DNA of 34,471 nt from Rhizaria sp. SCN 62-66. Lineage: Eukaryota. The stretch lies in the NCBI GenBank assembly GCA_001724265.1, contig MEDY01000321.1:1-34471 (forward strand). Direction: 5' to 3'. The notes under the pieces are model-generated. The model did no database searches. It saw only the letters and a list, made by a program, of their open reading frames with translations, and was not told the DNA's origin. This document shows, piece by piece, positions 2,001 to 27,041 of the stretch (positions within the stretch are counted from its first letter, which is position 1; every line of letters begins with the position of its first letter). A program made the translations under genes and the position numbers.

Positions 2001-2696
2001 GTTACTCTGTTGGGTGCACAGGAGAACGATTATATTGTGAGAGTAAACGCGCGAGAAGTGAGCCAAAGTGGTCAGGAATGACGGCATGTTCGACTGAAAT
2101 AGCAGATGGTGAATACGGCACTATATTCAGCACATAACACATCTGAAAAGCAAGGGTAGACTCCCCTAGTCATATATACTCCTATGCAAAACATGAAACG
2201 ACATAATAACGACGAGAAGGAGCACAGTTTGTCCTGTAAGTGGGACCAGCGACGTCACTATGCCGACAGACTAGCAGAGAGAGCAGGGCTGTGAGACTAA
2301 AAGGATTACTATTTCGGGGTGAGGTCGCAGTTTTGTGATGCAGATGCATGGGACATGGAACGGGCCCCAAGGTCTGCACGTAAATGACCCCATGCAATTA
2401 CCGTATCTTGTTTTGGTCTTTTGGTTGGTATTGTGGCTTCACGGCCTCAGTGTTGCATATCAATCGCACCTAGAAGTCTCGTCCCAGACTGTTTGTCTCA
2501 CCATAAAGGAGAGCTGCGACCAAAGTTCTCGTTTTTCATCGCGTGATGTCGCAGAAACGAAACACTGAGTTGATATATGATATAATGATATCTATAATAT
2601 TAGAAACCCGTGTTTATATGCTTGAATGCGATGTTCTCATCTCATTACTCTTCATGCCGCGACCTCTCCTGAATCGTTGTGAAGCCCGACACGCGA

Positions 2697-4935
2697 ATGT
2701 CGTCACCGCTGCCGCCCGGCTGGTAGACGCGCAAGGACGACTGGGGCCGCGACTTCTACATTGACCACAACACCGGCACCACGCACTGGCAGCCCCCGAC
2801 CGGGTCTACGTCAGCGGCCAAGCCTGACGCGCCTCCCGCCTACGGCGAGCAGTCGCCGCCGCCGCAGCCGCCCCAGGCTGCTCCTTACCCGTCGTCGCAG
2901 TCCTACGGCCCGCCCCCGCAGTCGCCACAGCCGATGCCGCAGCCGCAGTTTGCGTCGTCCCCGGCGATGGTGGGCTACGCGCCGATGCCGGGCGCCGTGT
3001 CGAACATGGGCGTCGTGATGGGGATCCCCGTCGTCATGTCGAGCCTGCCGCCCGCGGCCACACTGCCCGCCGAGGTTATGTACGCCAACGGCGCCGCGTG
3101 CCCCGAGTTCGACGCCATGGCCTCGCACAGCACGGCCTCTGCGCAGCCGATGGTGAACCCGAACTCGGCGTTTGACGCGCTGCACTTCTGCTGCAGCTCG
3201 ATGCCCTGCTCCTTCGTCATCTCGCTCATCCTGCTCGGGCTGCTCATCGTACTCATCTACTGCGCCAGCATGTACAACTCGATCCCCAGCGGCGACTTTA
3301 TCCGCCGCGGCGACTACCTGCCCGGCATTATTATCCCCGCCATGTTCGGTTTTATGATCTACCTCGTCAACTGCATCACCAACCTGGCGCAGCTCAGCTG
3401 CTGCCCGCTCTGCATCGCGCCCTCGGCCTCGCTCAAGCGCGGCGCCTTCCACACGGCCGCGGGCGCCACGACGCCCATGGGCGGCACCTCGGGCGACGTT
3501 ACCCACGCCTCCAACGCCACCGCGGGCCACCGCGCCAGCAGTAGCTTCTGCGTCATGCCCGCCGTGTTCCGCTCGGCCTACTTCACTGAGCGCGCGAGTA
3601 TGGACGACGTCGTGGCGCACTTCGACCGCATGCGCGTCGCGCCCGTCAAGCTCTCAATCAAGGTCAAGTGCGGCCACCGCGTCCGCAGGCGCAAGCACAG
3701 CCACTACGTTGTCACATACAGGTACGCACTCACGCGCTTCGTTTTGAGCAAGCATTAATGGATATTGTTAGTACAGTATTGTTCAAGCATTATTCCGCGC
3801 TATCTTAACTGTTTGTGACATACATGGACGCAAAAAAATGTATCATGATATGCCCGTGTTAAATTTACTTCTTTCTTGTTTATTTTCGTTTTCGTTGCCT
3901 TTGCTTTGTTTTGCTTCCTACGTCTGCGCCCGGCCTCGTCATAGCGCCGACATCCCGTACACGATCACGGCCGCGCGCGACACGTCGCACTCGTCGCAGG
4001 CGCTGCGCGACGCGGCGAACCAGGTCTTTGGAAACGCCTTCCTGGCCGAGTTTGACTCGGGCTACGAGCCGACGCCGGAGAGCGCGCGCGTGATCGACGC
4101 TCTGCGCGCGCACTACGAGAGTAAGTACGCCGGCATGGACACCGACGTCAACGTGTGGACCGAGTACGCCACCGGCGTCGTGCCAGAGGTCGCCTCCGTG
4201 TTCGTGCAAAAGGTACGCATCATCTCTATTCATCTGCAGTCAAGAAACTCTCCCAGCGATCTCGATCGCAATCCCGACATCTCTCACAATTCTTCGATTC
4301 CTCGTTTGTTCTCTCTGCTGCATGCTCTATCCGCACAGGACCAGGGCCTGCCGTGCGTGCACGAGTGCGTGACGTCGCCACTGTGCGTGTGCTGCTCGAT
4401 CCTGCTGGCGTGCTTCCCCTGCTACCTCTGCTTCTGGCGCTGGTGCACTCCTTCGCTGACCGTGCGGTCTCGCAAGCACCTGGTGGTGTCGCCGCAGATC
4501 AACGCGCCCAACGTCAACATCGGCTCCGTGGGCACCACGCTGCCGGGCTTCTCCAGCTCGCTCCCGCCCGGCCAGACGGGCCAGCCCACGCACGTGCTCG
4601 TCGTGCCACAGGGCTCCGCGCTGCAGGGCTCGCCCGTGGGCCAGGGCCAGTACGTGTCCGTGTCGGCGGGGCAGTACGCCGTCGCGCAGCCGTCGCCGCA
4701 GCAGCAGTACGCGACCGCGCCCGTGCTTGTGCCGCAGCAGCACGTGTATCCGCAGCAGGGACAGCAGCAGCAGCAGCAGGGGTATGCCAGTCTGCAGACG
4801 CCGCAGCAGCATTACCACCAAATGCAGCCGCAGCAGCAGCCGCAGGTACAACAGCAGGGGCCGCCGAGCTACGTGCCGCCGCCGTCGTCGCCGCAGCAGC
4901 AGCAGCAGCAGTTCTATCCGCCGCCGCCCAAGTAA
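2697..4935 (+). CDS. WW-domain, TMEM151-like membrane protein with Pro/Gln-rich tails; exons 2697-3721, 3945-4212, 4339-4935; 629 aa if the in-frame TAG at 2724-2726 is read as sense
   Basis: ATG at 2697 gives [33 protein letters not shown], a complete WW signature in frame with ORF 2934-3758. Two TM helices (FVISLILLGLLIVLIYC, IIIPAMFGFMIYLVNC). The segment FDRMRVAPVKLSIKVKCGHRVRRRK...ARDTS recalls the TMEM151 family (from memory). Cys-rich hydrophobic segment and a Gln/Pro-rich C-terminus. Stop is TAA. Confidence 0.82.
3722..3944 (+). other. spliceosomal intron (223 nt, phase 2)
   Basis: AG|GTACGC ... T-rich ... CATAG|C. Restores the frame between ORFs 2934-3758 and 3838-4935. Confidence 0.85.
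4213..4338 (+). other. spliceosomal intron (126 nt, phase 0, no in-frame stop)
   Basis: AAG|GTACGC ... C/T-rich ... CACAG|GAC. Abrupt drop in GC and codon bias relative to the flanks. Confidence 0.8.
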
Positions 4936-6126: not shown

Positions 6127-9100
6127 TCACACGCCGACAAAGGCCGCGGCCACAGCAACGGCGGCGGCGAGCGCGAGTGCGGCGGTGGTCGCGTGCGCAG
6201 GCGCTGCGTTGTCGCGCGAGGAGACGCAGAGGCGGTGCGTGCAGTAGCCGGAGCCGCAGTCCGAGTCGGAGAAGCACATGTCGCCGACGGCGCATGCAAA
6301 ACAGGTGTTGCCGCAGTCAACGTCGGCCTCGTTCGAGTCGCGCTCGCCGTTGAAGCAGAGCTCGTCGTAGTCGCGGTAACCGCTGTAGGTGGTGGTGGTG
6401 GTACTCTTGACGATGCCGGAGATCTCGCTCTCGAGCACCGAGAGGCGCGTCTCGAGCGCGACCGACAGCGCGTCGCGCGAGGTGGCGCCTGTGCCCAGCA
6501 GCGCGACCGAGAGGACGACGCGGCCCGTCTTAGCGGAGAACTGGTGCGACGACAGGTGCGTCGTGAAGGTCACGCCTGTGAGCCGCAGCGGGTACAGACT
6601 TAGGATGGTCTTGACCTGGCCCTCGAGCAGCGCCGCGGTGGCCGCGAAGGTCGTCTCGTGCGTAATATAAAGCGTCAACCGCGGGCCCGTGATACCGGCG
6701 TATGCGCCCTGTGATGTCTCGATGAGCGTGTAGCCCGAGGCTGCATAGACGGCGATGCGGCGCGCCGAGTCAGCGGCCTGGCGGGCCGGGTAGATGACGT
6801 TGTCGCAGTAGAGCACGTAACTGTCAGCATCGCTGTCTGTGCGCACGGCTGTGGTGACGGGGACCGTGATGACGGACCCGGTGACGACGCTGCCGACCGT
6901 CACCAGCTCGTGCGTGGCCACAGCGATCATGACGGGCAGCGCCGAGCTGGCGTCCGGGTCGGCGTCAGGGTCGGACGTGACGTCCGCGGTGACATTGCCC
7001 AGCTCGTTAAAGAAGAGACGGCACTTGGTCGACAGCAGGTCCGTAGCGACGGTGAGGAACTCGCCAGGCAGCGAGAAGACAAAGCGCGAGCCCAGCGGGA
7101 GCGTGAGCTGCGAGTTGAGTCCGTCGAGCAGCACGGTCACGTTGGCCAGCCCGTCGGGGCCGCCGGGCGTGACGACCGTCTGCAGCGTGAGTTCGGAACT
7201 CGTTATCGCGGGCACGGGCTGCGACAGCACGAGGTTGTCCGCGTTGGCGGCGACCAGGCCCGGCGCAATGGCGCTCGCGCGGTAGGCGCGGACCGTCAGC
7301 GTGGGGGACTCGATCAGCAGCGAGTCGGACAGAGTGAAGTAGCCGTCGCGACGGCAGACCAGCTCGAGCGTGTCGAAGCGGTTCAGCGCAAAGGTGAGCA
7401 CGAACGAGAAGTATGAGATCTCAACAGAGCCGTCGGACAGTGCGTCAAGAATATAAGGGCGCTCCAGAGCAACGGTCTGGTTGTTGGCCTGTCGGAGAAA
7501 TAAAAATAAAGATAGAAGTAGAAAGCAAAGATGATGTGAGTGAGAAAGTAGCTTAACCACAACAGCGAAAAAAATTGTCAAAAATAAAGCACACATGTCG
7601 AACAAGAGATGTGCTTGTTCCCATCGCGATTGTACTCATTGAGTCACGTACCTTACAGTCGATGCTGATGGCTTCCGCGGCGGTGGCGTCGGCGGCCACG
7701 ACCATACGCGGCGGCAGCTCGATCAGCATCGAGTCTCCGGCAAGCAGGTCCGTGTTGGGGCCCTCGACCAGGAGGCGCAGCGCGGCCTTGGTGGTGCCGT
7801 AGGTGAAGGCGTCGGTCAGCGGCACGGATGGGTCGCGGATGAGCGCGAGCGTGACACCGACCTCATCGGTGGCGCGCGGAAACGGCACCGCGGGCGTGGC
7901 CGTGGTGAAGCCCATCGGCGCGGCCGCCACGGGGCTCGTGTTGGAGCCGTAGTAGGTGGAGACTGTGAGCCCCGAGCGCGAGTTGACGTGCGTGAAGCCG
8001 AGGTCGCCGAACCCCACGACAGGCTCCTGCGACAGCGTGATGTCGCACGCGAGCGTGATGTTGGCCGTGATTGAGTAGGAAATGACGCCGACGGGCTCGA
8101 CGCGCACTGTCTGGGTCGCCGACGCCGGGTTCGTCGTCACCGTCACGGCCTCAGCGTCAGCCATGACGTCGTTGTACCAGAAGGTGCAGCGGCCGCCGTT
8201 GGGGGGCACGCGCGCCTGCGCGGGCAGGTCGAAAATAAGGTACTCGGATGTCTGCGACAGCGAGGCCTGGTACGGCGCGAAGGAGATCTGCAGCGACGCC
8301 TCGGAGCCCGTGTACGGAAGATCGTAGAGGAACTGGCGGGAGAGGCCGCCGTAGTCGCTGGTGGTGATCATCGAGTACGAACCGAAGGCGGCCTGCGAGT
8401 CGGCTGACACGCGCACAAGCGTGTCAAACGACACGGCCGCGGCGGCCGCCAGTGAGGACGGCGCGCGGAAGGGCGAGATGGTGACGATGCGCGCAGTGAG
8501 TGCGTCATCGGGCAGGACGAGCGTGCACTGGAACGTGTAGGCCGTGTTGAAGGCGTAGGACGACTCGTGCTGCAGCTGCACGAAAAAGGACGAATGCGTC
8601 AGCACGAGCGTGGCGAGCGTGGTGACACCGTAGGTGCAGACGAGCCCCTTGGAGAGCAGCGAGAGGTCAAACTGCGTCGGCAGCTGCACGCGCAACGCGA
8701 CCGTGCTGTCGATGTAGACGTTGGCCGAGGACAGCGAGAAGTCGACCTTGGTGCTGAACGAGCTCAGCCCCGTGGAGGCGAGCACGGTGTTGAGCGCGAC
8801 GGTGCCCGTCTGCACCTCCGGGGCCGCGATCTGCGTGCGCCACACGGCGTTGCCGTCGCTGTTGTAGACCGTGAAGGCGACCAGGTCCGACGGCGAGTAG
8901 GCGATGGTGCGCGAGCGCAGGCCGGTGCACGACAGGCGCAGGATCGGGGGCAGCGTGGTGAGCTTGATCGAATACCGCGCGACCGAAACCTGCCCCGTGC
9001 CGTCCTGCTTCGACACCGGCTGCGCCTCGGCGGTCGTCGTGGGCACTGGTGCGTCCGTCTCGGTGGCCGTGCTGCGGGCGTAGAGCGCGCACTGCAGCGT

Positions 9101-10986
9101 CGCGTACTGCTCCGACACGGGCAGCGAGAAGGCCAGCACGTTGCCGACGACGTTGGCGATGTTGGCCGGCAGCGCGGCGGCGATCTGCAGCGTCGTGAGG
9201 TCTGAGCCCGCGGCCGGGTTGGGCGGCGTCAAGGTCACCGTGCGCGGCGCAGACGCGTCACCGGTGCCGAAGGACGACGACAGCGCGGGCATGGCCACGG
9301 ACGCGCGCGCGACGGCAACCCACGCGGCGGCGGCGTCGGGCGACGTGTTGTTGTTGTACACAGTGAGCACTGCGGTGAGGTCCGTGGGAAGGTAGGCCGG
9401 CATGACAAGGTTGGTGCACACGAGCTGCAGCGGCGTGGCCGCGGTCCACCCCGTCGTCGGCAGGTCGAACTGCCAGGCGTTGGTCTCGAGCGCTGACGCC
9501 GTGGTCGCAATGCCGACCTGCGCGGACGACGCCAGCGCAACCGTGCACGCGGGCGTGGCGCCCAGCGCGAACGCGGTCGGCAGCCGCAGGACCACGCGCG
9601 CGGTGGCCGTGGCCGACGTTGTGGGCGGTGCCACGCCGAGCGGGGTCACCGTGAGCGACATGGTGCTCGACGCTGTGACGGGCACAAGCGTGTTGCTAAG
9701 CGAGATGGCGAGCGTGTCCGCGCCGAGCGTGGGCGGCGCCGCGATGGCGAAGCGCACGGCGTCGATGACGGCGAAAGCGCGCGCGCCGCCGTCGCCGAGG
9801 TAGAGCCCCAGCTCGAAGGTGCGGCGCGGCAGCGAGGTCGCGATGGCAGGTGGCGTGACGCCGGGGCAGGTGATAACGAGCCGCGCCGAGGCCAACACAT
9901 GCGTATCAAAATCGAGCCTGACCGTGGGCATGGTCGAGCTGGACGAGACGAGGCGAGCGGTGCCCGTGACAGTGAGCGCGCTCGTGGCGAGGTTGCGCGT
10001 CGCGACGGTGCACGGCGTGTCCGTCGTTGAAGGGAAGGTCCAGGCGGCGGCGTCGTCCATGACGAAGTACGCGTTCGAGGCTTCGCCGAGCGGGAAGAGC
10101 GAGGCCGTGCCGGCGGTGTTAAGGACGGAGAACTCAAGCACGAGCGAACCCGGGACGCCGGCAACGCCCGCGTTGTGCGACATCTGCGGCACCGACGCGA
10201 TGACCTGCATCACGGGCGGGAAGATGAGCGCGCCCAGCGTTGTGGTGATGGCCGCCGTGTCGCGCAGCACGCGCGGCGAGATGTACATGGCCGCGATGGG
10301 CGAGAGCGGGTACGGCGCCGAGCATTGCAGTGACAGCGTCGCCGACAGCGTCGTCACGTCCGTCAGCGGGAGCGCCCAGCCGCCCGTCTCCGCCGTCACG
10401 GTGAGCGTAATGCGGTACTCGGTGCCCGTGGTCGAGGTCTGCACCGTGGGGATGGCCGCGCCATTCCACAGCAGCGCACACGCCGTAGTCGAGTCGGACA
10501 GCGCGGACGGCAGCAGAAAGTCGATCTCGTCGTTGGTGCGGAACGCAACGCCGCGGTTCGAGGCGGGGAAAGCCCAGGTCACGGTAACACGCGTGGTGCC
10601 CGAGGGTGCGGTGGCGTAGAGGTTGACCGGGGAAGTTGTGCGGACGACTTTGCTCATGTGCATGGGGCCGAAGTCGGGCAGCGCGGAAACGAGCGCGAAC
10701 GACGACAGCGACAGCAGCACGGCCGACATGAGGGCCACAACCGCCGCCATCTGCGCAGAAGCGGCACGCGCAGGAAGGGGGAAAGATGGTATGAGGTCAT
10801 GTCATGGTTAGAGTGTGAACAATAAGCGATACAGTTGTCAGGGCGGTGGATAGAGAGAGCGAAATGGGAGCACTTCAAATACGGTTGCGAGGAAAATACA
10901 ATGTGTACAAATGGCGGTATACGGCGGGGATATGACGTGATACGTACGGAAGCGGAGGACCGCAAGAAACTTGCGCTCCCTCGCAT
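6127..10986 (-). CDS. large secreted, probably GPI-anchored surface protein with ~8 degenerate two-Cys beta-rich repeats and a C-terminal Cys-rich module; exons 10986-10948 (tentative), 10750-7652, 7488-6127; ~1499 aa
   Basis: Signal peptide MAAVVALMSAVLLSLSSFALVSA. Thr/Ser/Val/Ala-rich repeats. Cys module CFNGERDSNEADVDCGNTCFACAVGDMCFSDSDCGSGYCTHRLC. Ends in small residues then a hydrophobic tail (DNAA...AALALAAAVAVAAAFVGV) with no cytosolic segment. Stop is TGA. The start could alternatively be the ATG at 10750. Confidence 0.85.
7489..7651 (-). other. spliceosomal intron (163 nt, phase 0)
   Basis: AAG|GTACGT ... long T/C tract ... GACAG|GCC. Joins ORFs 7553-10750 and 6127-7605. Confidence 0.88.
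10751..10947 (-). other. spliceosomal intron (197 nt) immediately before ATG 10750
   Basis: TCC|GTACGT ... TCTAAC ... CGCAG|ATG. An upstream ATG at 10986 gives 13 in-frame codons (MRGSASFLRSSAS). Confidence 0.65.
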
Positions 10987-11718: not shown

Positions 11719-12704
11719 TTAGTTGCTCAGGCTGAGGTACTCCTTGACGACGGAGATCATACTCTTGGAGCCGTCAGCAAGGCGCACGGTGCCACCGTTG
11801 CCCGAGATCAGCTCCTCGATGCCGTTGTCACTGCTGCGAGCAGGCGCATCGGGCGCGGCGCGCTGTAACAAATATAGAGTGGGAACACAACAACAAGGTT
11901 AAAAGAATGACACGTGTTAGGCTCATATTCAGACATGATTAAACAACAAAAAGCACAATAACTCAAACAAAAATGCAAAGATAGCAAAGGCACGCGACTC
12001 TTCTCGTACGAACTACAATAAGAGACTATTCGCCGACGTACGAGACCGGACGAGTCCGAGTTGTTGCGGTGGCCGACCCAGTCGAGCTCCATGAACTTAG
12101 CGACCGTGGCGACATCGATGGGCATCACACGGCCCAGGATGCCGCACGAGCAGCAGAAGGTGATGACGCTAAGGCAGCAGTTGGCGATGCACTCCCCGGG
12201 CCGAGAGTCGGGGCGCGAGGCGCCGCTGAGCACACCTGGCCGCACAAGCAACGCCTGCTCGAAGCCCAGTCCGCGCACGATCGCCTCGGTCTCGCCCTTG
12301 GTGCGGATGTACAGGTTCGAGCTCGCCGCGTCGGCGCCAACGGAGGAGACGAGCGCGAAGTACCGCACGCCCTTGGCCTTAGCGGCGTGCGCCAGGTCGG
12401 ACACGAACGTGTGGTCGACGGCGCGGAAACGCTCCTCGGAGCCCGCGGCCTTGATCGTGGTGCCCACGCAGCAGAAGACAGCGTCGACGTCGGTGGGAAA
12501 GCGCGCAAAGTCGTCGGCGTTGTTGCCGGTGAGGAAGACCTCGGTGACGCGGTCGCGCAGCTCCGCGGGGAGCGCGTTCTTGACAGCCGAGTCGCGGCGG
12601 GTGAAGGCGTACACCTTGGCCACGTCATCCCCGCGGGACGCCAGCGCAAGAACGGTCTTCTGGCCGATGGCGCCAGTGGCGCCGGCGACAAGAACGGTGG
12701 ACAT
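11719..12704 (-). CDS. TIP30/HTATIP2(CC3)-like atypical NAD(P)-binding SDR oxidoreductase; exons 12704-12042, 11862-11719; 268 aa
   Basis: Rossmann motif VLVAGATGAIG. Family-like motifs VFCCVGTTIKAAGSEERFRAVDH, SSVGADAASSNLYIRTKGETE (YxxxK) and RPGVL. The spliced last exon reads RAAPDAP...KEYLSLSN then TAA. Confidence 0.88.
11863..12041 (-). other. spliceosomal intron (179 nt, phase 0)
   Basis: CTC|GTACGT ... CCTAAC ... TACAG|CGC. AT-rich between GC-rich exons. Confidence 0.85.
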
Positions 12705-13535: not shown

Positions 13536-16500
13536 TTACATCATATCCTTAAAGGACTTGCCGCGCTTGCCATTAGTCCGATCCCATGACGTTTTCGGTG
13601 TCGCTAAGCCCGCCTCCGCACCAGTAGGCAGCGCCCCTGTCTTCGAAACCGCAAAGGGGTTTGTATACTTTGCCTTAAGAGCGGTGCTGATGGGAAGCTT
13701 CGTTTCTTCGTTAATTGCAGTGCTCAAGCGCGCATTCAGGCCGAAGAGACGGGATAGCTTGCTCGGGACATTTCCACCGCTCGCAGTCGTGATGCTGTCA
13801 GTCTTGCTCTCTAAAACATGCGCACTGCGGCTCTCGTTACTCTGTGCAGTTGCACTCGCACTGCTGCTAATAGTCGAGCTACTTTTGCTGCTGCTCTCCG
13901 TGGTTGTCTTGCTGATGTGGTCTTTGAAAACGTCTTCGTCATGCAAACTCTGGAACGCACCCGCACCTGTCAGCATCTTGATCGGCGTAGTCGTTGTCGC
14001 TGCCGCTGCGACCTTGCGACTGCTGCTCTTGATCTTGCCCTCAGCAGCGGCAGCAGCAGAGGCAGGCTTGACCACAGGCGTGAGATTGCCAAGCAGAGTC
14101 GTTTGCACGCCCGCCAGCCCCATCGCAGCGCCCGTCTTGAAGATGTTGGCGCCACCCGCCACCACCAGCCCGCGCGCGCGCTCTTTGACACTATCCCGCG
14201 CCCCCAACGCCTCTGCCGCAGCCGCGGCCGACGGCTGAGCGACGGGCGCCGCGGCAGCGCGCTTGCGACGCACGGTCGTCTTGTTGTTCGCCGCACCTGT
14301 CGCGAGCACGGCGAACGACGACGGCACCACGGCGTGCGTGTTCATAAATCCGTGGCCGGGCGCCAGACCGCCGAGGCTCGCTGAAGCCGAGGCCAGCGAC
14401 GCGCGCAGGCCGGACAGCATGCGCGGGGCTGCGGGAACTGCGGGTCCGGTATGGCGACCGTTGTCATGGTCGTTGTCGCCATGGTCGTCGTCTACGCAGT
14501 CGAGGTCGCGGTCACGGTCGTCGTCTTGCATGTCGTTCGCGTCGATGTAGTTGTCATCACTATGAGCGTTGCGGCGGCTCGTCACGTGCGAGTTGAACCC
14601 GAGCGCGCGCATGCGCGCTGCGTAATCGGCCGAAATGAATGCGTCATCATCGAACTCGTTCGCAGCAGATGATGCGCCCGCACCATCGCTACTAAGGCGG
14701 GCGCGTTTCGGATTAAAGCCTGACGCGGTGCGGCCGTACATGTCAGCGTCATTGTCGCTGGCGTCGAGATCACGGTCGTCGTCGTAACTCTTAGCCTCAT
14801 TACTGCTGCTCTTCTGGCCGCTGCCGCCAAGCATTTGAGCAACCATGTCTTCGACGGTGAGAGTTGCCGCTGTTGTAGGCGCCACAGGAGCAGCCACGTC
14901 AATGTCTGCATGTGCGTCGAGGGTGCCCTGCTGTGTAAACGTGCCCGAAAGCATACTGTACGGAACTTGATGATTAGAAATGGGGTTTCTATAGCTAGGA
15001 TCGTGTTGATCCAAATCGTCACCGTACTCGTCGTCATCATGATCTTCGTGGTCTCCAGCGTTCGTCGACGCAGTTGCTCTGCTGTCATCAAAAGAGTCGG
15101 TAGCAGGCTTAGCCATATCGTTATTCTCGTTAACGTTGTTGCCATCAGGAAGACCTTTTGCAAGTGCTTCGGCGTCATCAACCGAGTCGGCGTTTTGATC
15201 AACCGAAGTACTTTCATCGCTACCCATAAAGCGAGTGATTAGCGCCAACGCTTTGCCATAATCAATCTCCATCGCGAGAGCAGAAGCCTTTCGACCATCA
15301 ACAGAGTCACCGCTCGCATCGACTTCGTTTTCGTTGTTAGTAAAACTCTTCTGGCTGCTGGTGCCGTTGATAATGTTGGCGGTGGCCGCGGGATTAAGGT
15401 CTTCCAACCGATCCGACTCGCTCTTCGGCTTCGCACTCTCGTCGCTATTTTCGTGGGTGCTGCTCATTCTATCTGTGGCTGCTAAACTGTCTAATGTTGC
15501 AGCTGCAGTCAGCGGCGGCGTTGCACCAGGCTCAGTCTTTATCAACGCATGAGAGTTGGACGATGCAGGGCGCTGTGGGGTGCGCTGTGGTGCATGCTGC
15601 GTTGCGTACTGTGTCGGTGCAAAGTGGCCCCGCTGCGATAAACCCTGAAGGTCATCGTGATCGTACTGGCTCCAGTTGCGAGCAGCGCTGCCGCTGTCAG
15701 AACTGCTACCAGCAGCACGGGCAGCAGCAGGCGTTCCTGACCGACTCGCGCCCTGACCAGCACTCGACGCAATGATCGGCCTCGTCGTCCTTCCTTGTGT
15801 CGGCGGTGTCTTAGTCGGTGTCGCGGTTGTCGAACTCTTCTGCGGCGTCGAACGCGCTGGTGAACGGTTGGTAGTTGCGCTCTGCGCTACACGCCGAGTT
15901 GCAGTCACTTCTTCTTCCATCATCTCCGTCAGCCACGTGAGCGACGCACCTTTGTTTGCGTCAACTCCATTACTCACATCAGCTTCGCTGTAATCATTAT
16001 CGTCGCCTGCCACAATCATATTGTGTTCCGCTAAGCTCGTGCTGCTATGCTTACTGTCGCTGTTCTTGTGCGTGTGCTTACTCGTGTGCTCGTCATCACG
16101 CCTATATGCAAATGAACGCAGAGCCTGGAGCGCCAGCCTGGGGTCAAGGTCGCTGCGCGGCACCGTCGCAGCCGCAACATCGTCGCGGTCATCGATGTGG
16201 CACAAACGGGCAATATGGTGAGCACTCTCTTGGGTGAGAGCAAACGCGCGCACACGTTCCGTTGCCCCAGGGGAAAGAGAGCCGTTTGATAACAAGGCAG
16301 CGGTGTCGGCGTCTGATAGAACGACACCCGGCTGCTGTAATGTTGCGGGAACACCAGGTACGAGGGCCGCCGCAGATTGCAAGCGCAAGAGCAGAATGGG
16401 ACGATAGTATGCATTGTCGTGTTTCGTAAGCCATGCAACAAACGCATCCGCAGCCTCTGCAGGCTTCAATTCGCGCTGCTGTTGCAGTTGCTCAGTGTCA

Positions 16501-19500
16501 AGACTAAGATCAGTGCGCCGACGATCATTGCGACTACGATCTTTGAGCGCGCGGTCACTGATATCGAGATCACCGGGCTCGTTGCCACCCGAGATCCAAG
16601 CGCGGTGCAGTGCAGCCTCTTGTTGCTCCGTGTTTAATGCGGCACCGCTTGCATCCGCGCTGTGGCTGGCACTACTATCGCTGCTGTTTGACACATTGTG
16701 GCCGTCACTTGCGTTATTGTTGTTGACGCTGTTGCGCTGAGCTGAAGCAAGCGTGCGTTTGTGTTCGCGCGCGCGGCGCCGGGTCTGACGTCCTTCCCAC
16801 TCGCGCACACACGCAATCGCGGCGGCAGCAGCAGCGGCAACGCTCATGCCGCCACTTGCTGCACCTGCTGGCGCGGCGCCCTCGTCGCCGTCACCGTCGG
16901 GCGCTGCCGTACCACTGTTTGACGCCGGCGCGCTGAAGCTAAAACCTCCGGCGCTACTGCCATTACTGTGACCGTTGTAGCTGCTTGTTGAAACGCCGAG
17001 AAGATCAAGCAGTTGTTTTGAGGCGGCGAGCTCGTCCTCACGCGCCCATACAGCCTCGGCAGCAAGAACTGCAGCCGCACGCGCAAGCATCCCACGCACG
17101 CACGATGTCGCGGCGCCAAGAGTAAGCCCCGTGGGCGCAACCGAAAACGGTGCTGCTGCAGTCACGCACTGTGCAATGAGTGGAGATTCAGATTCACGCG
17201 TAGATCCCGCCAAGACTACCGCGGAAGCAGATGTAGAGTTAGCCGTATCAGTACTCAGACGCGTGTTAAAAGAGAATCGCATGCGCTGCAGTGCAGGGTT
17301 CTGTGCGCGCACTCGTGCAGCCCTGGCCAACGCTAGCACAACTGTGGGGGCGCAGAAGTCGCTGGGGCCCTGCAACACCTTGTCAGTGCCGCATAACACA
17401 GGAAATGTCGTCAGTGCACCAGGTCTTGAGCTTGCACTCCTCTTGCTCGGCTTGCGGGAGCTCTTATTCGCAGTCACATCGTGGTGCTCCAAAAACGCGA
17501 CTGCGGCGGCCACGGCGGCGTCTGCGTCTGCTTCAGCTAGCACAGCAGAGTCGCCGTCCTCAGCGAGGCCGGCAACGCGCGACAGCGTGCGTGCGGCGCC
17601 AGCGGCGGTGGCTGCGGTGGCGAGGCGTGCTTGGGCGGCAATAAGTGCAAACAGCACAGCCGCAGTTGGAGGCGCAAAGCTACCGGCAGCATGACCGGTG
17701 GTAGCGCTAGTGCTGCTGCGGCTTACAGTCGCACCAACAGGGCGAACAGTGATGACGGTGGTGTTGTCCGCACTTGTAGCGTCGGCCCAGTCAAAAGCGG
17801 TGGCTGCAGCGTTGCTGGTAGTGGCACCAGCGCTAAAACCTGAGTTCGAAGTCGCCGAGAAGGCAACGTTAGCGTTGCTGTCTCCTGATGACAGAGAGTA
17901 AAATGTGCTGCATTGCGCAACCGTAAGAAATGGAAGCAGCTCACGGACACAGACATCGGATGCCCGGAACAAGTCGCAACGACGAGACTCGTGGTAGCTC
18001 TGATGATGCCGTGTCAGCGGCCGCTGCGACAACGCGTAAGGCATCGGCAGATTGTTGTAGGAATGAAAGTAAACACGAGCACTGTGACCGGGAGTGCGAG
18101 TGCTACTCTGAGTGCCCGAGTGTCCGTGAGCATCAACGTGGCCGCGAGCACGCGGTGACGAGAACGTGCTGATTGCCTCACCAGTTTGCAGAATCGAGAA
18201 GGCGGAAGAAGCAACTGTAAGCAATGGCTGAACCCAACCCAGTGCGAGCGCAATGTCTGCTCCAGTAAGCGGCTCGAGTGGAATTCCTGCTTGTACACTC
18301 CCGCCACTATTGAAGCTGCTATTGACATTTCTACTGTTGTTTGTCGTCAGATGCAGAAGCACGCAAGCCGCGAGCTCAGCCTGAGTCCGCGCCTTAGCGC
18401 CCGCAGCCGTGGCAGCGGCGAGCTCTGCGGCCGTCGCAAGCTCAGCCTTGCTCGTGCTGACAGCAGTGCCGGTCGTGCGTCCGCTCAGCACGTCCGCAAC
18501 CGTGCTCGCGCTCTGCTGCTGCTGTCTGTCGCTGCTGCGCTGCGCGTGGCTCGCCAGGATGCGCAGCATCGGAAGCTCAAGAGGAATAAGCGACAGCGAC
18601 ACGCCACTCCCGGTAGCCACAACGCCAGGCCCCGCCTCGTGCGCACTCGTATTGGCGCCGCCCGCAGTGGCCGCGGTGGCAGTTGATGTAGGCAGCGCCA
18701 GCAGCTGCAGCAGCGCCTTGCTCACGCCAAGTCCTAACACCGGCGGCAGAGCCGGCGTGCTGTGAGCTTGATTATGAAAAGAGGCAGAAGCGGAGTGCGA
18801 CTGTTGTTGCTCTGCAGCGCGCCAGTTGGCAAGCGCCCTGCGCAACCTCTCTTCGCGCTCGCGCTCACGAGCATCCGCGTCTGCAACCGCGGCAGCAAAC
18901 GAAGCGAGCGCACCAGCAATGTCAAAGCGCCCCATAAACCCCCTCGGCATGTGCATGTTGAGCGTGCTTTTGACGTGCGACTCGGGGGACTCGAACCGCA
19001 CGCGCCAAGCCTGTGCCGCTGCAAGCGCCTCGTCCTCCCAACGCGGCTGTAGCAGCAGTGAGCGCGGACACATCGCGCCCAGCAGCAGCGGCAGCACAAA
19101 AGCCGGCGGAAGGGGCGGGCCCAAAAAGCACAAGTCGCGCCGTGAGATACGATAAGTCTTGCCAGAAACGGGCGGGCCACCTGGCGCGGGTGCGTGGCCG
19201 TAAACAGAGTGGTTGTGGGTCGATGCCGACGTAGACGGGGATGCAGACACGGATGCAGCGGCGCCGTGGGCAGTTACTCCCATGACTGCAAAAGCTGGTG
19301 TCGGAGCATGAGCAGACAGTGCGGAGTAGGAGTGCGAGACGAACGGCAGACATGCAGCTGCAGCGGCAACAGCCTTAGAGCCTAAGTCTGGTGCCCCCAC
19401 CCATGGCAAAGCAGCGCCACCGCTGTGTGTGCCATGCTCGGCAGCTGCACATGAGTCTGACGTGGTGCAGTGTGAATGGAGATGGTATGTGCGAGCGGAA

Positions 19501-22500
19501 GACGGGGGCACGGGGGGCGGCGCCGTCGTCCAGAGATCGGGCGGGGGCGCGAAGATAACCGTGGCAGGGAACAGCAAGGATGCGAGTGATACAAAGACAC
19601 TCTGATCATTGTCCGCGCTAACTGCGTTGTCTTCGCCGCAGCAGACGCAAGTCACTGTACGCACACCGCTGTCGTTTACCACGCTAGCTCCAGTAGAGCA
19701 GTCATGTGCAAGTAGTGACACGGCCGCAGCAACAAGGCCGACAGGCGGGACGCTGTCAGTGTCATTCTCGCCCTCACACTCATTGCCGCATTTCCTCTGC
19801 ATCGCGACCTCAGACAGAATGCTCCTAGCGCCGCGCTGCTCTGAGTTACGCACGACATCCGCGAGGAACTGCCACGGTATCGCAGCGCGGCGGCCCGCAG
19901 CCTTAGCAGGCGCAATAGGGCGACCACCGCGACTGGCACCGTCGACAGTTATACCAGCGCCACCACTCTTGTTCATGCCACTCTTAGCACGCGCACCATT
20001 ACTGCTGTTGCTGCCATTGTACAACAAAGCGTTATTGTTGTTAGCGCTGAAGCTGGCGCTCAGCAAGCTAGCGTTTGAGATCGAGTCAGTAGATGAAGTG
20101 TGAATTGCAGCGGCGCACTGTGGGCACACAGGCAACTCCGGCACATTCACGGCTGCAGGCGCAGCAGAAGCGGATGAACCGTCGCTCATCGCCAATGTTG
20201 CTGTCAATGCGTTGTCGCCCAGCAACGAGTCCACCGCTGCACCGTCAGTTGCATTCGCACTCGCAGATGAGCTGCTGTTGCCCGCGTGCGCTGCGTTACG
20301 AGCAGAAGCGGCATCTGGGTTCCGATTACGTGAGTGCACAAACGCGTGGTTGTGCATGCGCAACCGGTAGAAGTCAACCGCTTTCGCGGGGCCCAAGCGC
20401 GGGTCCAGCGGCGTAGACCGCGACTGGTCCCAGAACGCCGCGTCCAGCGGGTTCAGCGACGACCGCGGCGGCACGCGCGGCGCCGCAGTCGCCAGCGTGT
20501 CCCGCCAGCAGTGACCGTGAGCAGCGCCCGAAGAGCCCAGCCCGGTGGGAGTAAACGGGAAACGGGCGTCAAGGCGCGGTGGTGAAGGCATAGCGGGCGC
20601 GATCGTAAGCGCGGCCAGATCGCCGACCATCGAGTGGCGAAAACCAAGGCGTGCGCGCGCGAAGGCGGCCACAAAGTACGGTGAACGCGCGGACAGATAT
20701 GGCACGGTTGTCGCGGTGGCTGCAGCGCTCGCAGCAGCGGCTGCTGCAGCAGCAGCGTAATATGGCGACGGCTGCAGCGTCGCGGTCGCCACAGAAGCGT
20801 ACCCACCGTCAGAGAGAGCTGCAGAGTCCGTGCTTGTAGCAGATGCAGCCGCGGCCTTAGCTGCACGCGTGTGCGCGGCCTCAGCCTCCTCAGCAGCCTC
20901 AGTCGCGGCAATCACCGCGAGCACCTCCTCGCCCGAGCCCGTTTCCGTCTCCAGAAACATGCGCAGCGCGGTCTTGACGCCCATGCGCGGCAGGGACGGC
21001 AAGTAATCGCAGCCCGAGAGCAGACACACGTCGATAAAGCGCGAGCGCGAAGCCGACGCGAGCGCCAGCAGCGCGGAGAGGTCGTGGCGGGACACGGACG
21101 GCACTGCGGGCAGCGGCAGCGCCTGGGGCGGCGCGGGCAGCGCGGGCTGAGCGCGCGGAGCGGCGGGTGCCGCGGCAGGCTTCGTGGTCACTTCAGCCAC
21201 TGTAGTCGCTGATGTCACCGCCGCAACTGCAACAGCGGCGTTGTTGTTGTTGCTAATGCCGCTGGTCGTATTGCTATTGTAGCCATAGTCTTGCTCAATA
21301 TCTGAGTCCCCATCGATATGGATATCGGGCTGCAGCCGACTCACATCACCGCCGTTCGCAGCAATGACGCCGAACAGCGACAGAGACGACTATGATGATG
21401 ACGACGACGGCAGTGACAAAGACGCAGGAACTGCTGCGCTGTCGGCCTCCGTTTCCTTCCCTTTGGCGGCTTTGGGCTTGCGACCCCGCTTCGCCGCAGC
21501 AGGCTTCATTGACACAGCATCGTCGCCGTCGTCGCCGTCAACAATTGCCGTTGCAGTCGCTATTGCGCCCTTCTTCCTCGCGCTAACCTTGCTCGACGCA
21601 GCGTCAGTGCTATGGCTGTTGTTAGCACCGCGTTTCATCAGCAGTGCAAAGGCATTAGTCTGCGGCGTCACGAGCGCGGTTGAAGGGGAAGATGAATCAC
21701 CCACCGGAGTGCTGAAGTCGATCGTGACGGTGTCAGGCAGCGCGGGTGTTGGCAGACCGCTGCCGCTCGCGCCACTGGCACCGCGGCGACCACGGCCACT
21801 TGCGCCAGTTTGCGCTAGGAGAGAAAGCGTCGAGATGTCATCACCCTCATCGCCATCGTTGCAGTTGCTTGCATCGGCTGCAGCGGCGTCTGCTGTCACG
21901 GTCGCAATGACAGCGCGCACACGCGCCAACAACGCCGCGTCGCGTGCACTCGCGCTCCCGCTCGCGTCCCCAGCCTGCTTCTGCAGTGCGTGCGACTGCG
22001 GGTACAGCAATGACTGCGGCTGCGCCTGTGCTTCCGCGTGCGTGAGCGCAGCGATAACGTGCGCGGCCCACTCGCGGCGCCACTGCCGCAACAGCACGGC
22101 AAGCCCCGCGCGCGCGGCGGCGTCGTCACGGTGGAACCAGAACGCCGCCGCGTCGTCCGCGGCGCCCGTGTTGACGTTGAGGCACGACCAGTCGTTCTCA
22201 TCATCAGCATCACTGCTGGCGTCGCCGTTGCTCTCGCTGTTGTTGCCAAAGATGCTCGCGATGAAGGCGACGACGCCCTCGGCGACCGCGACGCCGTCCG
22301 CGCCCCTGATCGCGCCCGCGCTGCCGGTCGCGACGCCGCCGTTGGCGCCGATGTTGGCCTGCGACATCGCGTCGACCTCGAGAGAGCGCGCTGCGAACCG
22401 CGGCTGCCCGTCCACAAAGCTCAGCCCGCGCACATCGTCGGCAGCACCAGAGCTTGGTCCGGCGCTGGCGCTGCTGCTGCTGCTGCTCGATTTGCTGGTA

Positions 22501-24351
22501 TTGGTGGCTGCGGAAGCAGAGCGCTGCTTCGCGCCGGCGCCGCGCTTTGAGGCTGCGGCGGCAGCGATTGATGCTGCCGTTGCGGCTGCGGTCGCCGACG
22601 CCAGCGGCAGCAGCGTTTGCGCAGTGGCGGCGAGCTGCGCGAAGTCGAAGTCGGCGCTCATGCTGTTCACAGTCGCGAGAAGTGAGTTTGTGTGACTGTG
22701 ACTTCGAGCAGTGCTGCTGCTGTTCTTGTCATTGTGAAAAGCAGTGTCAGTGCGACGGTGAGATGGATCCTTGGCGACATCCCAAGAGTTGGCACTCCTG
22801 CTCTCAGTGATGTTACCGTCGTTTGAAGCTGTTCCGTCCTGCTCCGGAGTGTTATCGTCGTCAGGATGCGGCCACTCCTCGAGTGAGTCGTAGAACAAAG
22901 CGACTGTGAGAGCGCCCACGCTGCCGACCCACGGGCCTAACGCGCGCCCACAGTCACTCTCGTGCCCACTCAGCCGACTGGGATCAGGACTGTGGCCATG
23001 ACCGAGACTGGGAGTGTATGCGAGATGTGGGGCATGCGCCTGCAGCCATACGTGGCGGCGGCGCCACTCGAGCAGCGCCAGCACGGCCGTGCGCGTCTGC
23101 ACCATCAGACCGCTGCCGCCGGCCCGGTCAGCACTGCGCTGGGATGAGCTGCTCACATCGGAGTGACTGTGCGCGGCGGTGAGGCTGATGCCGGTGAGCG
23201 ACAGTGGCAGTGCGCAGTCGCTGCCGAGACCAAGTCCAGCGGCAACGTTAGACAGGAGCAACTGTGGCGACTGACGTTGCTGACGCTGAAGAATGCTATC
23301 GTCGTTATCGGCGTTATCACCGTTATCAGTCATCAACACAACTGCGTTGTGGTCACTGTCGTTGTCCGCGGCAGTGACAGCTGTGGAGGCAGGCGTGGAT
23401 GCGACAGCGAGCCTGATCGCAAGCGCAGACGCTTCCTTCGTAAGCCTGGGGAAGCCGTGGCCAGTGATGCCCGCCAGGACCCTTAGATCCGCAAGCACCC
23501 CCTTGGACACGTCGACCCACTCGCCCCAGCCGTCGCCGCTCACGCCCGCGGCGAACCCGGCGTTGCCGGCGCCGATGCCGCTGCTGCTGTTGCTGCTGTT
23601 GTTGAGCTTCAGCAGTAACCGCGCGCAGCCGAACGCGAGCAGGTCCGAATCCTCCGTGACGGCTGCGGCGACGAGCCCGCGGTGGTAGAGGGCCGCGATC
23701 TGCGCGTCCGCCTCGTAGGGCGCGACGAGCCACGGCACGCCCGCGCGCGACAGCAGGCGCTGGAACGCGCGAGAGAGCAGCCGCGTCGGGCGCAACGACC
23801 GCGCCAGCGCCGTTTCCGCCTCCGCGGCCGCCGCGGCAGCGCTCGCGGCCGAGGCCTGCCCAGTGCCGGCAGCGCCAGTAGCGGAGGCGGAAGACGCGAG
23901 CGCGAGGCCGTGCGCGATAAGCGTGCGGCGGCGGTCCGCGCGCGTGGCGGCAACGGCGTCCTTAAGCGGGGGCGACGCGCCGTCGAAAACGAGCACGGGC
24001 AGCACGCCGTTGTGGAGCAGAGTGTCGAGCAGCGACTGCAAGAAGCGCAGCGGGGCCAGCGTGGGGAAATCGAACGCCAGCTCCAGCGAGGCCGTATACA
24101 GCGAGCGGTACAGCCAGGCAGAGGCGTCCACAGCCACACGCTTGCCACGCAGCTCGCGCACGTGCATGCTGAGTTGAATAAGGAGCCGTTACGAGAAAGA
24201 ACATGAAATAAGAGTGTGTGAGTGAAGAATGGGGCAAGAGTTGTTGCTGAGACAGTGAAGTCCGGGAGGGCGACGTGAGATAGAGAATCAAAATGTGAAC
24301 GTACGGGCGCGTCGCGGGGCGCAAAACAGAGAGTAAACCTTTAACACCCAT
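13536..24351 (-). CDS. EXO1: exonuclease 1-like XPG/Rad2-family 5' nuclease, greatly expanded by low-complexity insertions; exons 24351-24305 and 24168-13536; 3559 aa if the in-frame TAG at 21392-21390 is read as sense
   Basis: Spliced N-terminus MGVKGLLSVLRPATRPMHVRELRGKRVAVDASAWLYR. Motifs VFDG, APYEADAQIAAL and TEDSDLLAFG lie before the TAG. The H3TH motif FIDVCLLSGCDYLPSLPRMGVKTA, then FARARLGFRHSMV and DLCFLGPPLP, lie after it. ORFs 21390-24167 and 13536-21344 share one frame and are separated only by that TAG. Stop is TAA. Confidence 0.85.
24169..24304 (-). other. spliceosomal intron (136 nt, phase 2)
   Basis: CC|GTACGT ... CTCAG|C. Joins MGVKGLL to the rest of the XPG-N domain. Confidence 0.9.
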
Positions 24352-25883: not shown

Positions 25884-27041
25884 TTAGTCCTTCTTAGCAA
25901 CAGGTGCAGCGGCCCCAGCAGCGGTCGCGGCCGCGGCAGCCTTAACGCGCTTGTCGTGGACGCTCTTGGCGATGCCGTTGTACATCCACACGTATCCTAT
26001 GGCGACCGCGCGCAGCACCGAGGCCGAAAGGACCTGGATCAACGCAGTGGCGCCGCCGTCGACCGGGGAGAAGCCGGCGGTGACGCAGCCCAGCACGTGG
26101 CCGTCGAAGCCGGTCTGGATAAAGAAGCGGTAGCGCTCGATGCCGGCGACGACGTCGCGCGCGATGTCGGCCGCGGGGAAGAGCCCGGTGCCCTCAGACA
26201 TGAGCTTGCATTCCTCGGGCTTATGGGCCATCTCGGCCGCGTACATCGGCGTGTCCACGTCGGGCGGGTTGCACACCGAAACCGCGATGCCGTGCGGACG
26301 CGCCTCCATGTGCAGCACCTCGGCGAAGCCGCGCACGGCGAACTTGGTCGGCGCGTAGGCCGAGTAACCGAAGATGCCCGCCTGGCCGGCCATGGACGAG
26401 ATGAGCACGATGCGGCCTGACTTCTGCGCCTTCATCGCCGGCAGCACGGCCTTGGTGCAGATCACCACGCCCAGGTAGTTGATGCGCACCATGCGCTCAA
26501 ACTCGCGCACTGGGATGTCGTCGATGTGGTTCGGCGTCGACACGCCCGCAGACGCGATCAGGCAGTCCACCGTGGTGTACTTGGCGGCGAACGCGGCGAC
26601 GGCGGCGTTGACCGCGGCCTCGTCGCTAACGTCCACCGAGTACGTCACAATCTCGGTCTTGGAGCCCGTCTGCGTGGCCAGCGCGGCGAGCTGCGCGCGC
26701 GCGGCGTCGAGCGTGGCCTGTGTGCGCGCCATCAGCGCGACGGCGCGCGCGTGTTTGCGTACCAGCGACTCGGCGATGCTCAGGCCGATGCCGCTGGAGC
26801 CGCCGGTAACGATGAACGTCTTGCCCGCAATCTAAGGGGGGCGCAGGGTTTAGGGAGGGAAAGCAGCGAGTGAGATATTGAATGTGACGGAGATAAGATG
26901 TAAAGCCGGAAGATAGATAGCGAAAGACAGATGTGTAAAACGAACCTTCATGTTGGGGATGCGCTCGCTAAGGAACTCGAGAGCAATGCCGAGGACGGCA
27001 ATAAAGGCGACAATGCCGCCAAGAACGTAGAGCCAGCACAT
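25884..27041 (-). CDS. KDSR: 3-ketodihydrosphingosine reductase (KDSR/FVT1/TSC10-like SDR); exons 27041-26946, 26831-25884; 347 aa
   Basis: N-terminal membrane anchor. TGGSSGIG, INYLG, LISSMAG, GYSAYAPTKFAVRG (YxxxK) and PPDVDTP motifs. C-terminal hydrophobic segment. Stop is TAA. Confidence 0.88.
26832..26945 (-). other. spliceosomal intron (114 nt, phase 0)
   Basis: AAG|GTTCGT ... CCTTAG|ATT. Contains an in-frame TAA. Confidence 0.88.

Follow-up and report, generated by a model that had tools for sequence, protein, structure and literature searches.

What does a stop codon mean when it stands in the middle of a protein domain that is otherwise complete? This question is raised by a stretch of 34,471 nucleotides from Rhizaria sp. 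SCN 62-66 (assembly GCA_001724265.1, contig MEDY01000321.1, positions 1 to 34,471 of the forward strand), hereafter the window, in which a gene for a WW-domain protein carries a TAG at its tenth codon, directly after the first tryptophan of the domain. A second TAG interrupts the frame of an Exo1-like nuclease gene on the opposite strand. The two codons are found in separate assemblies, each is flanked by parts of one Pfam domain, and none of the 9 gene ends of the window is a TAG. We think it likely that UAG is read as an amino acid in this organism, a judgement that concerns translation of the codon and not glutamate in particular. The arrangement that appears most likely from the sequence is that UAG serves as a rare sense codon, with UAA and UGA kept as stops.

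The WW gene and the features on which the argument depends are as follows.

2697..3721, plus strand: exon 1 of the WW gene, with the WW domain, a PPAY motif, two predicted membrane helices and a conserved C-terminal block
2709..2798, plus strand: WW domain, residues 5-34 (Pfam PF00397, profile positions 1-31 of 31)
2724..2726, plus strand: in-frame TAG, codon 10, right after the first tryptophan of the WW domain, read from the sequence and present also in the L001 and X4 contigs
2832..2843, plus strand: PPAY motif (PPxY-type), PPSY or PPAY in orthologue alignments, with Y49 invariant
3722..3944, plus strand: intron 1, GTACGC...CATAG, 223 nucleotides
3945..4212, plus strand: exon 2, from sequence reading and alignment to the protein P0286
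4213..4338, plus strand: intron 2, GTACGC...CACAG, 126 nucleotides, open in frame
4339..4935, plus strand: exon 3, which encodes a Cys-rich membrane segment and a PPSY motif and closes with the terminator TAA at 4933-4935

The frame that begins at the ATG at 2697 reads MSSPLPPGW, then TAG, and stays open to 3755 with a GC content at third codon positions (GC3) of 0.91. A WW domain is recognised by two tryptophans spaced some 20-22 residues from each other, by a pair of aromatic residues and by a proline after the second tryptophan. All of these are present here (W9, W31, F20-Y21 and P34), and they are invariant in a three-way orthologue alignment. With X placed at the TAG, the Pfam WW model (PF00397, cut-off 26.9 bits) scored the whole open reading frame (ORF) at 28.7 bits and a piece of 40 residues at 34.4 bits. 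Since residues 5-34 cover all 31 positions of the profile, the TAG lies within a complete WW domain of canonical spacing. This domain is also the best-conserved part of the protein when compared with its orthologues, 25 of its 30 residues being identical by hand count. The sequence-only reading, which had proposed a real TAG inside an intact WW domain, is thus borne out by a full-profile match above the cut-off.

That reading had also held that no intron can take the TAG out and that the listed ORF starts at 2934, downstream of it; both statements held when other data were consulted, and the base is no assembly slip. Assemblies were compared through their contigs, and none of the 40 rows of differences listed, out of 66, falls at either in-frame TAG. 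A separate metagenome contig (L001) has 0 differences from the window over the 261 bases aligned across the WW TAG, and a contig from another study and year (X4), which spans 2000-2814, has 0 differences as well. Both therefore carry the identical TAG. The canonical spacing of the domain leaves no room for an intron, and none of the five introns defined in the window lies at or near the codon. Finally, the database protein of this gene (P0002, 274 residues, seen on 7 contigs) begins at Met 2934, past the TAG, and no longer form with the WW domain was present among the matches of the P0002 search. RNA data reach the codon only at its edge. The contig from the RNA run X7 covers 2694-3013, with just 30 letters to the left of the TAG and 2 differences from the window at positions not listed, and was not counted as bridging it; the polyA run X5 gives no cover over 2000-2663 and some over 2664-3327. 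The start of the transcript was seen in neither X5 nor X7.

Where the gene ends is the point on which the sequence-only reading was wrong: it had placed the end at 3758, and the gene runs on through two introns to the TAA at 4933-4935. Exon 1 is closed by the donor AG|GTACGC directly after 3721 and can be aligned over its length with the orthologues P0003, P0012 and P0149. Intron 1 is supported by the spliced protein of a relative (P0286), which joins ...VVTY to ...EIPYSITAARD, and intron 2 by a gap of 42 residues when P0286 was aligned by tblastn; all three parts of the gene are joined in the same way in that protein. The predicted product has 629 residues and consists of the N-terminal WW domain, the PPAY motif, the membrane helices, the C-terminal block, the Cys-rich membrane segment and the PPSY motif. 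The PPAY motif is presumably a WW ligand of the PPxY type, and a single protein of this gene would carry both a WW domain and its usual PPxY-type ligand (PPAY, PPSY). The relative contig L002 shows the same gene order, and its WW gene terminates in TAA. In a third related species, represented by P0286 and P0009, the called ORF starts at a Met within the PPxY motif and comes without the WW domain; the longest contig, of 2,702 nucleotides, is long enough to hold one. An in-frame stop, possibly TAG, may possibly stand upstream of the called ORF in that species too.

The second TAG lies in a gene of a quite different kind, laid out as follows.

13536..24167, minus strand: Exo1/XPG-like gene, a frame of 3543 codons with a single in-frame TAG and the terminator TAA
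23589..23741, minus strand: first half of the XPG-I domain, upstream of the TAG, profile positions 1-52 of 89, 61.4 bits
21390..21392, minus strand: the second in-frame TAG, in the context PSSSSS-TAG-SSLSLF
21006..21095, minus strand: second half of the XPG-I domain, its helix-three-turn-helix part, downstream of the TAG, profile positions 60-89 of 89, 11.5 bits, E 0.42

Reading through this TAG fuses the minus-strand frames 13536-21389 and 21390-24188 into one gene. That gene belongs to the XPG/Rad2 family (Exo1-like), with 61.4 bits for XPG_I (cut-off 24.9) and 44.4 bits for XPG_N (cut-off 22); XPG_N sits upstream of the TAG, in the same frame as both halves of XPG-I. The piece that follows the TAG has its own recognisable identity, as every one of the 18 PDB sequences that it matched at E <= 1 is a FEN1 or an EXO1, the match falling on chain residues 199-250. 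Between the two halves lie about 830 codons of low complexity in which the TAG is the sole stop, and about 20 stops would be expected, by an estimate from base composition, in a non-coding stretch of such length and GC content. Intron signals of the type used in the window were looked for around 21390-21392, and none was found. The database again holds only a fragment, namely the piece after the TAG (2602 residues, in two variants on 6 contigs). A fused, uninterrupted Exo1 orthologue was not found: 2,276 candidates were scored, and the 1 hit proved to be the part of the window's own gene that follows the TAG. As an observation on this gene, the insertion of about 830 low-complexity residues falls within XPG-I itself, and the tail of about 2,500 residues keeps its frame open despite differences that look neutral.

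We then asked how stop codons are used across the window as a whole. In-frame TAG codons occur in 2 of about 10 genes, a small number, one in each; both genes are otherwise intact and conserved, and each TAG has parts of one Pfam domain on its two sides. When a codon model was trained on the genes of the window, in-frame TAA and TGA turned up only at gene boundaries or in introns, and the two TAGs are the sole in-frame stops within the coding segments that it defines. The 9 gene ends are TAA in 7 cases, TGA in 2 and TAG in 0. By hand count, the next base is G after 7 of these 9 terminators (TAAG or TGAG), and A and T after the two in-frame TAGs. Two further TAGs were considered as codons and rejected, both being intron acceptors, one at 26832-26834 in the gene for a KDSR-type reductase and the other at 3942-3944 in the WW gene; acceptor TAGs of this sort mimic in-frame stops in ORF listings. 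We also dropped the argument that both in-frame stops are TAG. With the codon usage of the window, 60% of random single-base nonsense mutations yield TAG, so that such a coincidence has p of about 0.36 if the two codons are nonsense mutations.

Which amino acid might UAG encode? The informative site is the one in the WW domain. The closest orthologue, on L002, has GAG (Glu) at the position of the TAG; L002, P0003 and P0004 share 41-43% identity with the window protein (MAFFT). Of the more distant orthologues, P0012 has E and P0149 has S, which makes E in 2 of the 3 orthologue lineages with a WW domain and S in the third. Among 260 WW domains of the PxGW type, taken from the 150 best profile-search hits with a slight lean towards E because E stands in 2/3 rows of the query profile, the residue after the tryptophan is E in 229, D in 8, Q in 7, S in 4 and L in 0. 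When each residue was placed at the TAG, the Pfam WW scores were 37.4 bits for E, 36.7 for K, 36.0 for Q, 35.9 for S, 34.4 for L, 32.8 for Y and 26.9 for W. The sequence-only reading had favoured Glu or Gln over Leu. The comparison with orthologues and with other WW domains favours Glu, and Leu is disfavoured by its score of 34.4 against 37.4 bits and by its absence from the 260 domains, as had been proposed; Gln does no better than Ser or Lys. The Exo1 site is uninformative or appears to lean weakly to Ser, S filling 4 of the 7 SS.SS positions in the window's own proteins. Given that the TAG is read, we lean towards Glu as the residue, judging from a single informative site, which cannot fix it; Gln and Ser each appear unlikely on the same comparisons, and Leu very unlikely.

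The mechanism that we propose is modelled on other codes in which UAG was reassigned without UAA. A transfer RNA (tRNA) with the anticodon CUA would pair with UAG and not with UAA, and if the residue is Glu a single base would separate such a tRNA from tRNA-Glu(CUC). An eRF1 with poor recognition of UAG would accompany it. The ribosome would then insert a residue, most likely Glu, at codon 10 of the WW gene to make the WW/PPxY membrane protein in its full length, and the same decoding would take place at one codon of the Exo1-like gene. We infer the tRNA(CUA), the weak eRF1, the translation of TAG and the identity of the residue by this analogy and from the comparisons above. A CUA tRNA together with a weak eRF1 would be the most economical mechanism, as argued for two recoded organisms to which we return below, exLh and Iotanema.

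Several points weigh against a sense UAG, and many of them equally suit a standard code, with the two TAGs as nonsense mutations in tolerated or dying genes. The whole case consists of two TAG codons. Their density, 2 in 8,385 codons, is about 10 times below that of the rarest sense codons, which occur 18-24 times each. That none of the 9 terminators, a small sample, is TAG would be expected anyway in a clade biased towards TAA. All but one of the known transcripts of Guttulinopsis vulgaris end in UAA; one gene of Rosculus does terminate in UAG (both from PMC5304391). A tRNA scan of the window yielded 0 tRNA genes. The TAG of the WW gene comes only 9 codons past the start, and re-initiation at Met 80 (2934) is conceivable; nonsense mutations would then have left a WW protein rescued at that Met, minus the WW domain and the PPAY motif, and an Exo1 cut after 925 residues. 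TAG is moreover the stop that such mutations would give most often here. Strain differences in the Exo1 tail are synonymous in 10 of 33 cases against a neutral expectation of 10.1, with no sign of purifying selection after the TAG, and the assemblies that share the two codons could all be one clone. Against two nonsense mutations stands the need for both to have become fixed in 34 kb that hold about 10 genes, the 353 (WW) and 2617 (Exo1) codons downstream showing neither a frameshift nor a further stop. The WW domain, lost in a protein rescued at Met 80, is still perfect and the most conserved part of that protein; a truncated Exo1 would lack half of its catalytic domain; and the TAG is found in samples from 2015-2025 and in several studies. 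We consider two nonsense mutations under a standard code unlikely.

The evidence that the downstream frames are meant to be read fits equally well with a standard code and leaky or programmed readthrough, in which a near-cognate tRNA at UAG would allow some full-length protein to be made. In a clade whose genes hardly ever end in UAG, termination at this codon may be weak. CARYYA is a known context motif for readthrough, and the bases that follow the two TAGs (ACGCGC and TCGTCT) differ from each other and neither fits it. The 120 nucleotides after each TAG are no more structured than 200 shuffles (z +0.43 and -0.83). The lack of structure beyond the shuffles and the unlike downstream bases leave site-specific programmed readthrough unsupported, and a catalytic domain split by a stop would require efficient rather than occasional readthrough. 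A hint in its favour is that the eRF1 of exLh bears a change known to raise UAG readthrough (PMC5304391). We hold readthrough to be improbable. Still more so, and by a wide measure, is removal of the TAG in the RNA, such as its editing into TGG or CAG, or an artefact of assembly or sequencing shared by all records. The 2 differences that the X7 contig shows over 2694-3013 could be taken to favour it, but separate assemblies agree, none of the listed differences lies at either TAG, and editing to Trp would give the worst of the WW scores. There is lastly a rival nested within the preferred reading, namely that UAG is a sense codon for Ser, Gln, or Leu as in exLh. The Exo1 TAG, which gives no help for Glu, stands in a run of serines whose flanking TCG and TCA codons are one base from TAG; S is the residue that most often fills such a position in the window's proteins and is found at the WW site of the distant orthologue P0149, and the Pfam gap between E and K, Q or S is just 0.7 to 1.5 bits. 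Precedents are at hand as well, UAG being Leu in the only known recoded rhizarian (PMC5304391), Ser in Scotinosphaera and Gln in Iotanema and some ciliates (PMC11687900). On the other side, the closest orthologue has GAG, Glu far outnumbers Q, S and L among the 260 domains, Leu scores 3 bits under Glu, and the serine run is of low complexity, without a conserved column for alignment. We regard a residue other than Glu as possible, although rather doubtful. A sense UAG, most likely with Glu as its residue, is the reading that we retain as probable.

If UAG is indeed a sense codon, to whom does this code belong? Proteins of the window match Aph-1, Got1/Sft2, S1/P1 nuclease, XPG/Exo1 and KDSR-type reductase, and their origin is eukaryotic. 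Among the matches listed, the window sequence occurs in 16 public runs; they belong to 10 studies, whose samples came from bioreactors, wastewater, activated sludge and microbial fuel cells. The organism is thus a GC-rich, intron-bearing eukaryote of wastewater and bioreactor metagenomes. The top named relative of the KDSR protein is Guttulinopsis vulgaris (EukProt), with 55% identity by BLASTP; two euglenozoans come next, Entosiphon with 46% and Euglena with 44%. A maximum-likelihood tree of 38 KDSR rows was built by a quick search only, with Guttulinopsis as its sole rhizarian row. There the window protein and two metagenome proteins form a clade with a support of 98, and together with the Guttulinopsis group they make up a larger clade of 8 rows with an SH-aLRT of 87. 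The organism is therefore probably a rhizarian related to Guttulinopsis (Sainouroidea), which is to be taken as a lead from one marker and not as a placement. This lead fits the habitat, since both Rosculus and Guttulinopsis figure prominently in wastewater plants (PMC8827150). Further sequences of the organism and its kin were sought as well. A search of genome contigs with Aph-1 gave 0 confirmed loci; an alignment search with KDSR gave 0 loci among viral contigs and 76 among genome contigs, every one in a record titled bacterial. An atlas search with Aph-1 confirmed a eukaryotic family and gave no useful taxonomy. The one metagenome scan yielded only L001, which is the same sequence, L002, the orthologue, on 3.6 kb, and L003-L005, three WW genes that are unrelated.

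The remainder of the window provides the setting of these two genes. Five introns are defined, starting at 1185, 3722, 4213, 12041 and 26946, with donors GTACGT, GTACGC or GTTCGT. The four that were read at both ends measure 116-223 nucleotides, and the acceptors, where read, are CAG or TAG. The S1/P1 gene, the KDSR gene (about 116 nucleotides) and a gene for an NAD-binding protein (11863-12041) have one intron each, and the WW gene has two. A contig of run X7, labelled as metagenomic cDNA, lacks the 179-nucleotide GT..AG intron of the NAD-binding gene (11863-12041, minus strand), so that spliced RNA of the organism was present in that wastewater sample. At 422-1753, on the minus strand, the intron-split S1/P1 nuclease gene encodes a C-terminal hydrophobic anchor. 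The region 6127-10750, also on the minus strand, holds two tandem genes of 489 and 1065 residues. Their starts resemble signal peptides, they have repeats rich in Thr, Ser and Ala, and neither has a Pfam match; the first carries a Cys-rich module and a membrane anchor at its end. Judging from these features, the two may be surface proteins.

Nuclear reassignments of UAG alone are known from just a handful of lineages. A sense UAG in this protist would be a natural early-stage case of the capture of a stop codon, with about 1 UAG per 4,000 codons in an organism that is abundant and repeatedly sampled in wastewater. The organism would have one relative in which UAG has a different meaning and another in which nearly all gene ends are UAA. 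If the residue is Glu, the code would not be the Leu code of exLh, the apparent relative, and UAG would have been captured two times or more, by different tRNAs, in a lineage that had all but ceased to end its genes with it. There is also a practical consequence: standard gene callers shorten both genes, and the database proteins lack the WW domain in the one case and half of the nuclease domain of Exo1 in the other.

How does the proposed code compare with those already known? In the rhizarian exLh, a member of the Sainouroidea, UAG is read as Leu and genes terminate with UAA (56) and UGA (15); 384 UAG codons occur in 71 genes, about 5 per gene, at conserved Leu positions, and the predicted mechanism is a tRNA with the anticodon CUA together with weakened recognition of UAG by eRF1 (Panek et al. 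2017, PMC5304391). The window resembles exLh in that UAG is its only in-frame stop and, as far as its 9 gene ends go, in terminators dominated by UAA alongside UGA; moreover, exLh belongs to the same broad clade as Guttulinopsis, the closest named relative of the window. The two differ in the frequency of the codon, which occurs 2 times in 8,385 codons of the window, and in the residue, which at the informative site appears to be Glu and not Leu (L in 0 of 260 domains). They also differ in habitat, exLh living in an insect and the organism of the window in wastewater and bioreactors. Our literature search for a recoded rhizarian or cercozoan beyond exLh found none. Neither was a code in which UAG means Glu and both UAA and UGA remain stops found described in the literature searched. 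We put forward only tentatively that such a code, in a rhizarian of or near the Sainouroidea, would be a nuclear code not yet described.

Among other lineages, the oligohymenophorean ciliate PL0344 reads UAG as Glu and UAA as Lys (PMC11687900; PMC10553269). It is similar to what is proposed for the window in having UAG as glutamate, decoupled from UAA, but it is a ciliate with a sense UAA, whereas TAA ends 7 of the 9 genes of the window and is never found in frame. The same contrast holds for peritrich ciliates and Blastocrithidia, where UAR is Glu (PMC11687900; PMC12153298): they would share the amber codon as glutamate with the window, and their UAA is also Glu. In Scotinosphaera, UAG is reported as Ser (PMC11687900). 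Iotanema spirale reads UAG as Gln and keeps UAA as a stop, sense UAG making up about 8% of its Gln codons, and phyllopharyngean ciliates read UAG as Gln or Leu while UAA stays a stop (PMC5304391; PMC11687900). Iotanema and the phyllopharyngeans are like the reading proposed for the window in that UAG alone is reassigned and UAA is the main terminator, and sense UAG is rare in Iotanema as it would be here, but they belong to other lineages and use another residue than the one that is likely in the window. The sense UAG of the window, if confirmed, would be a new lineage for a known kind of change, the nuclear reassignment of UAG alone.

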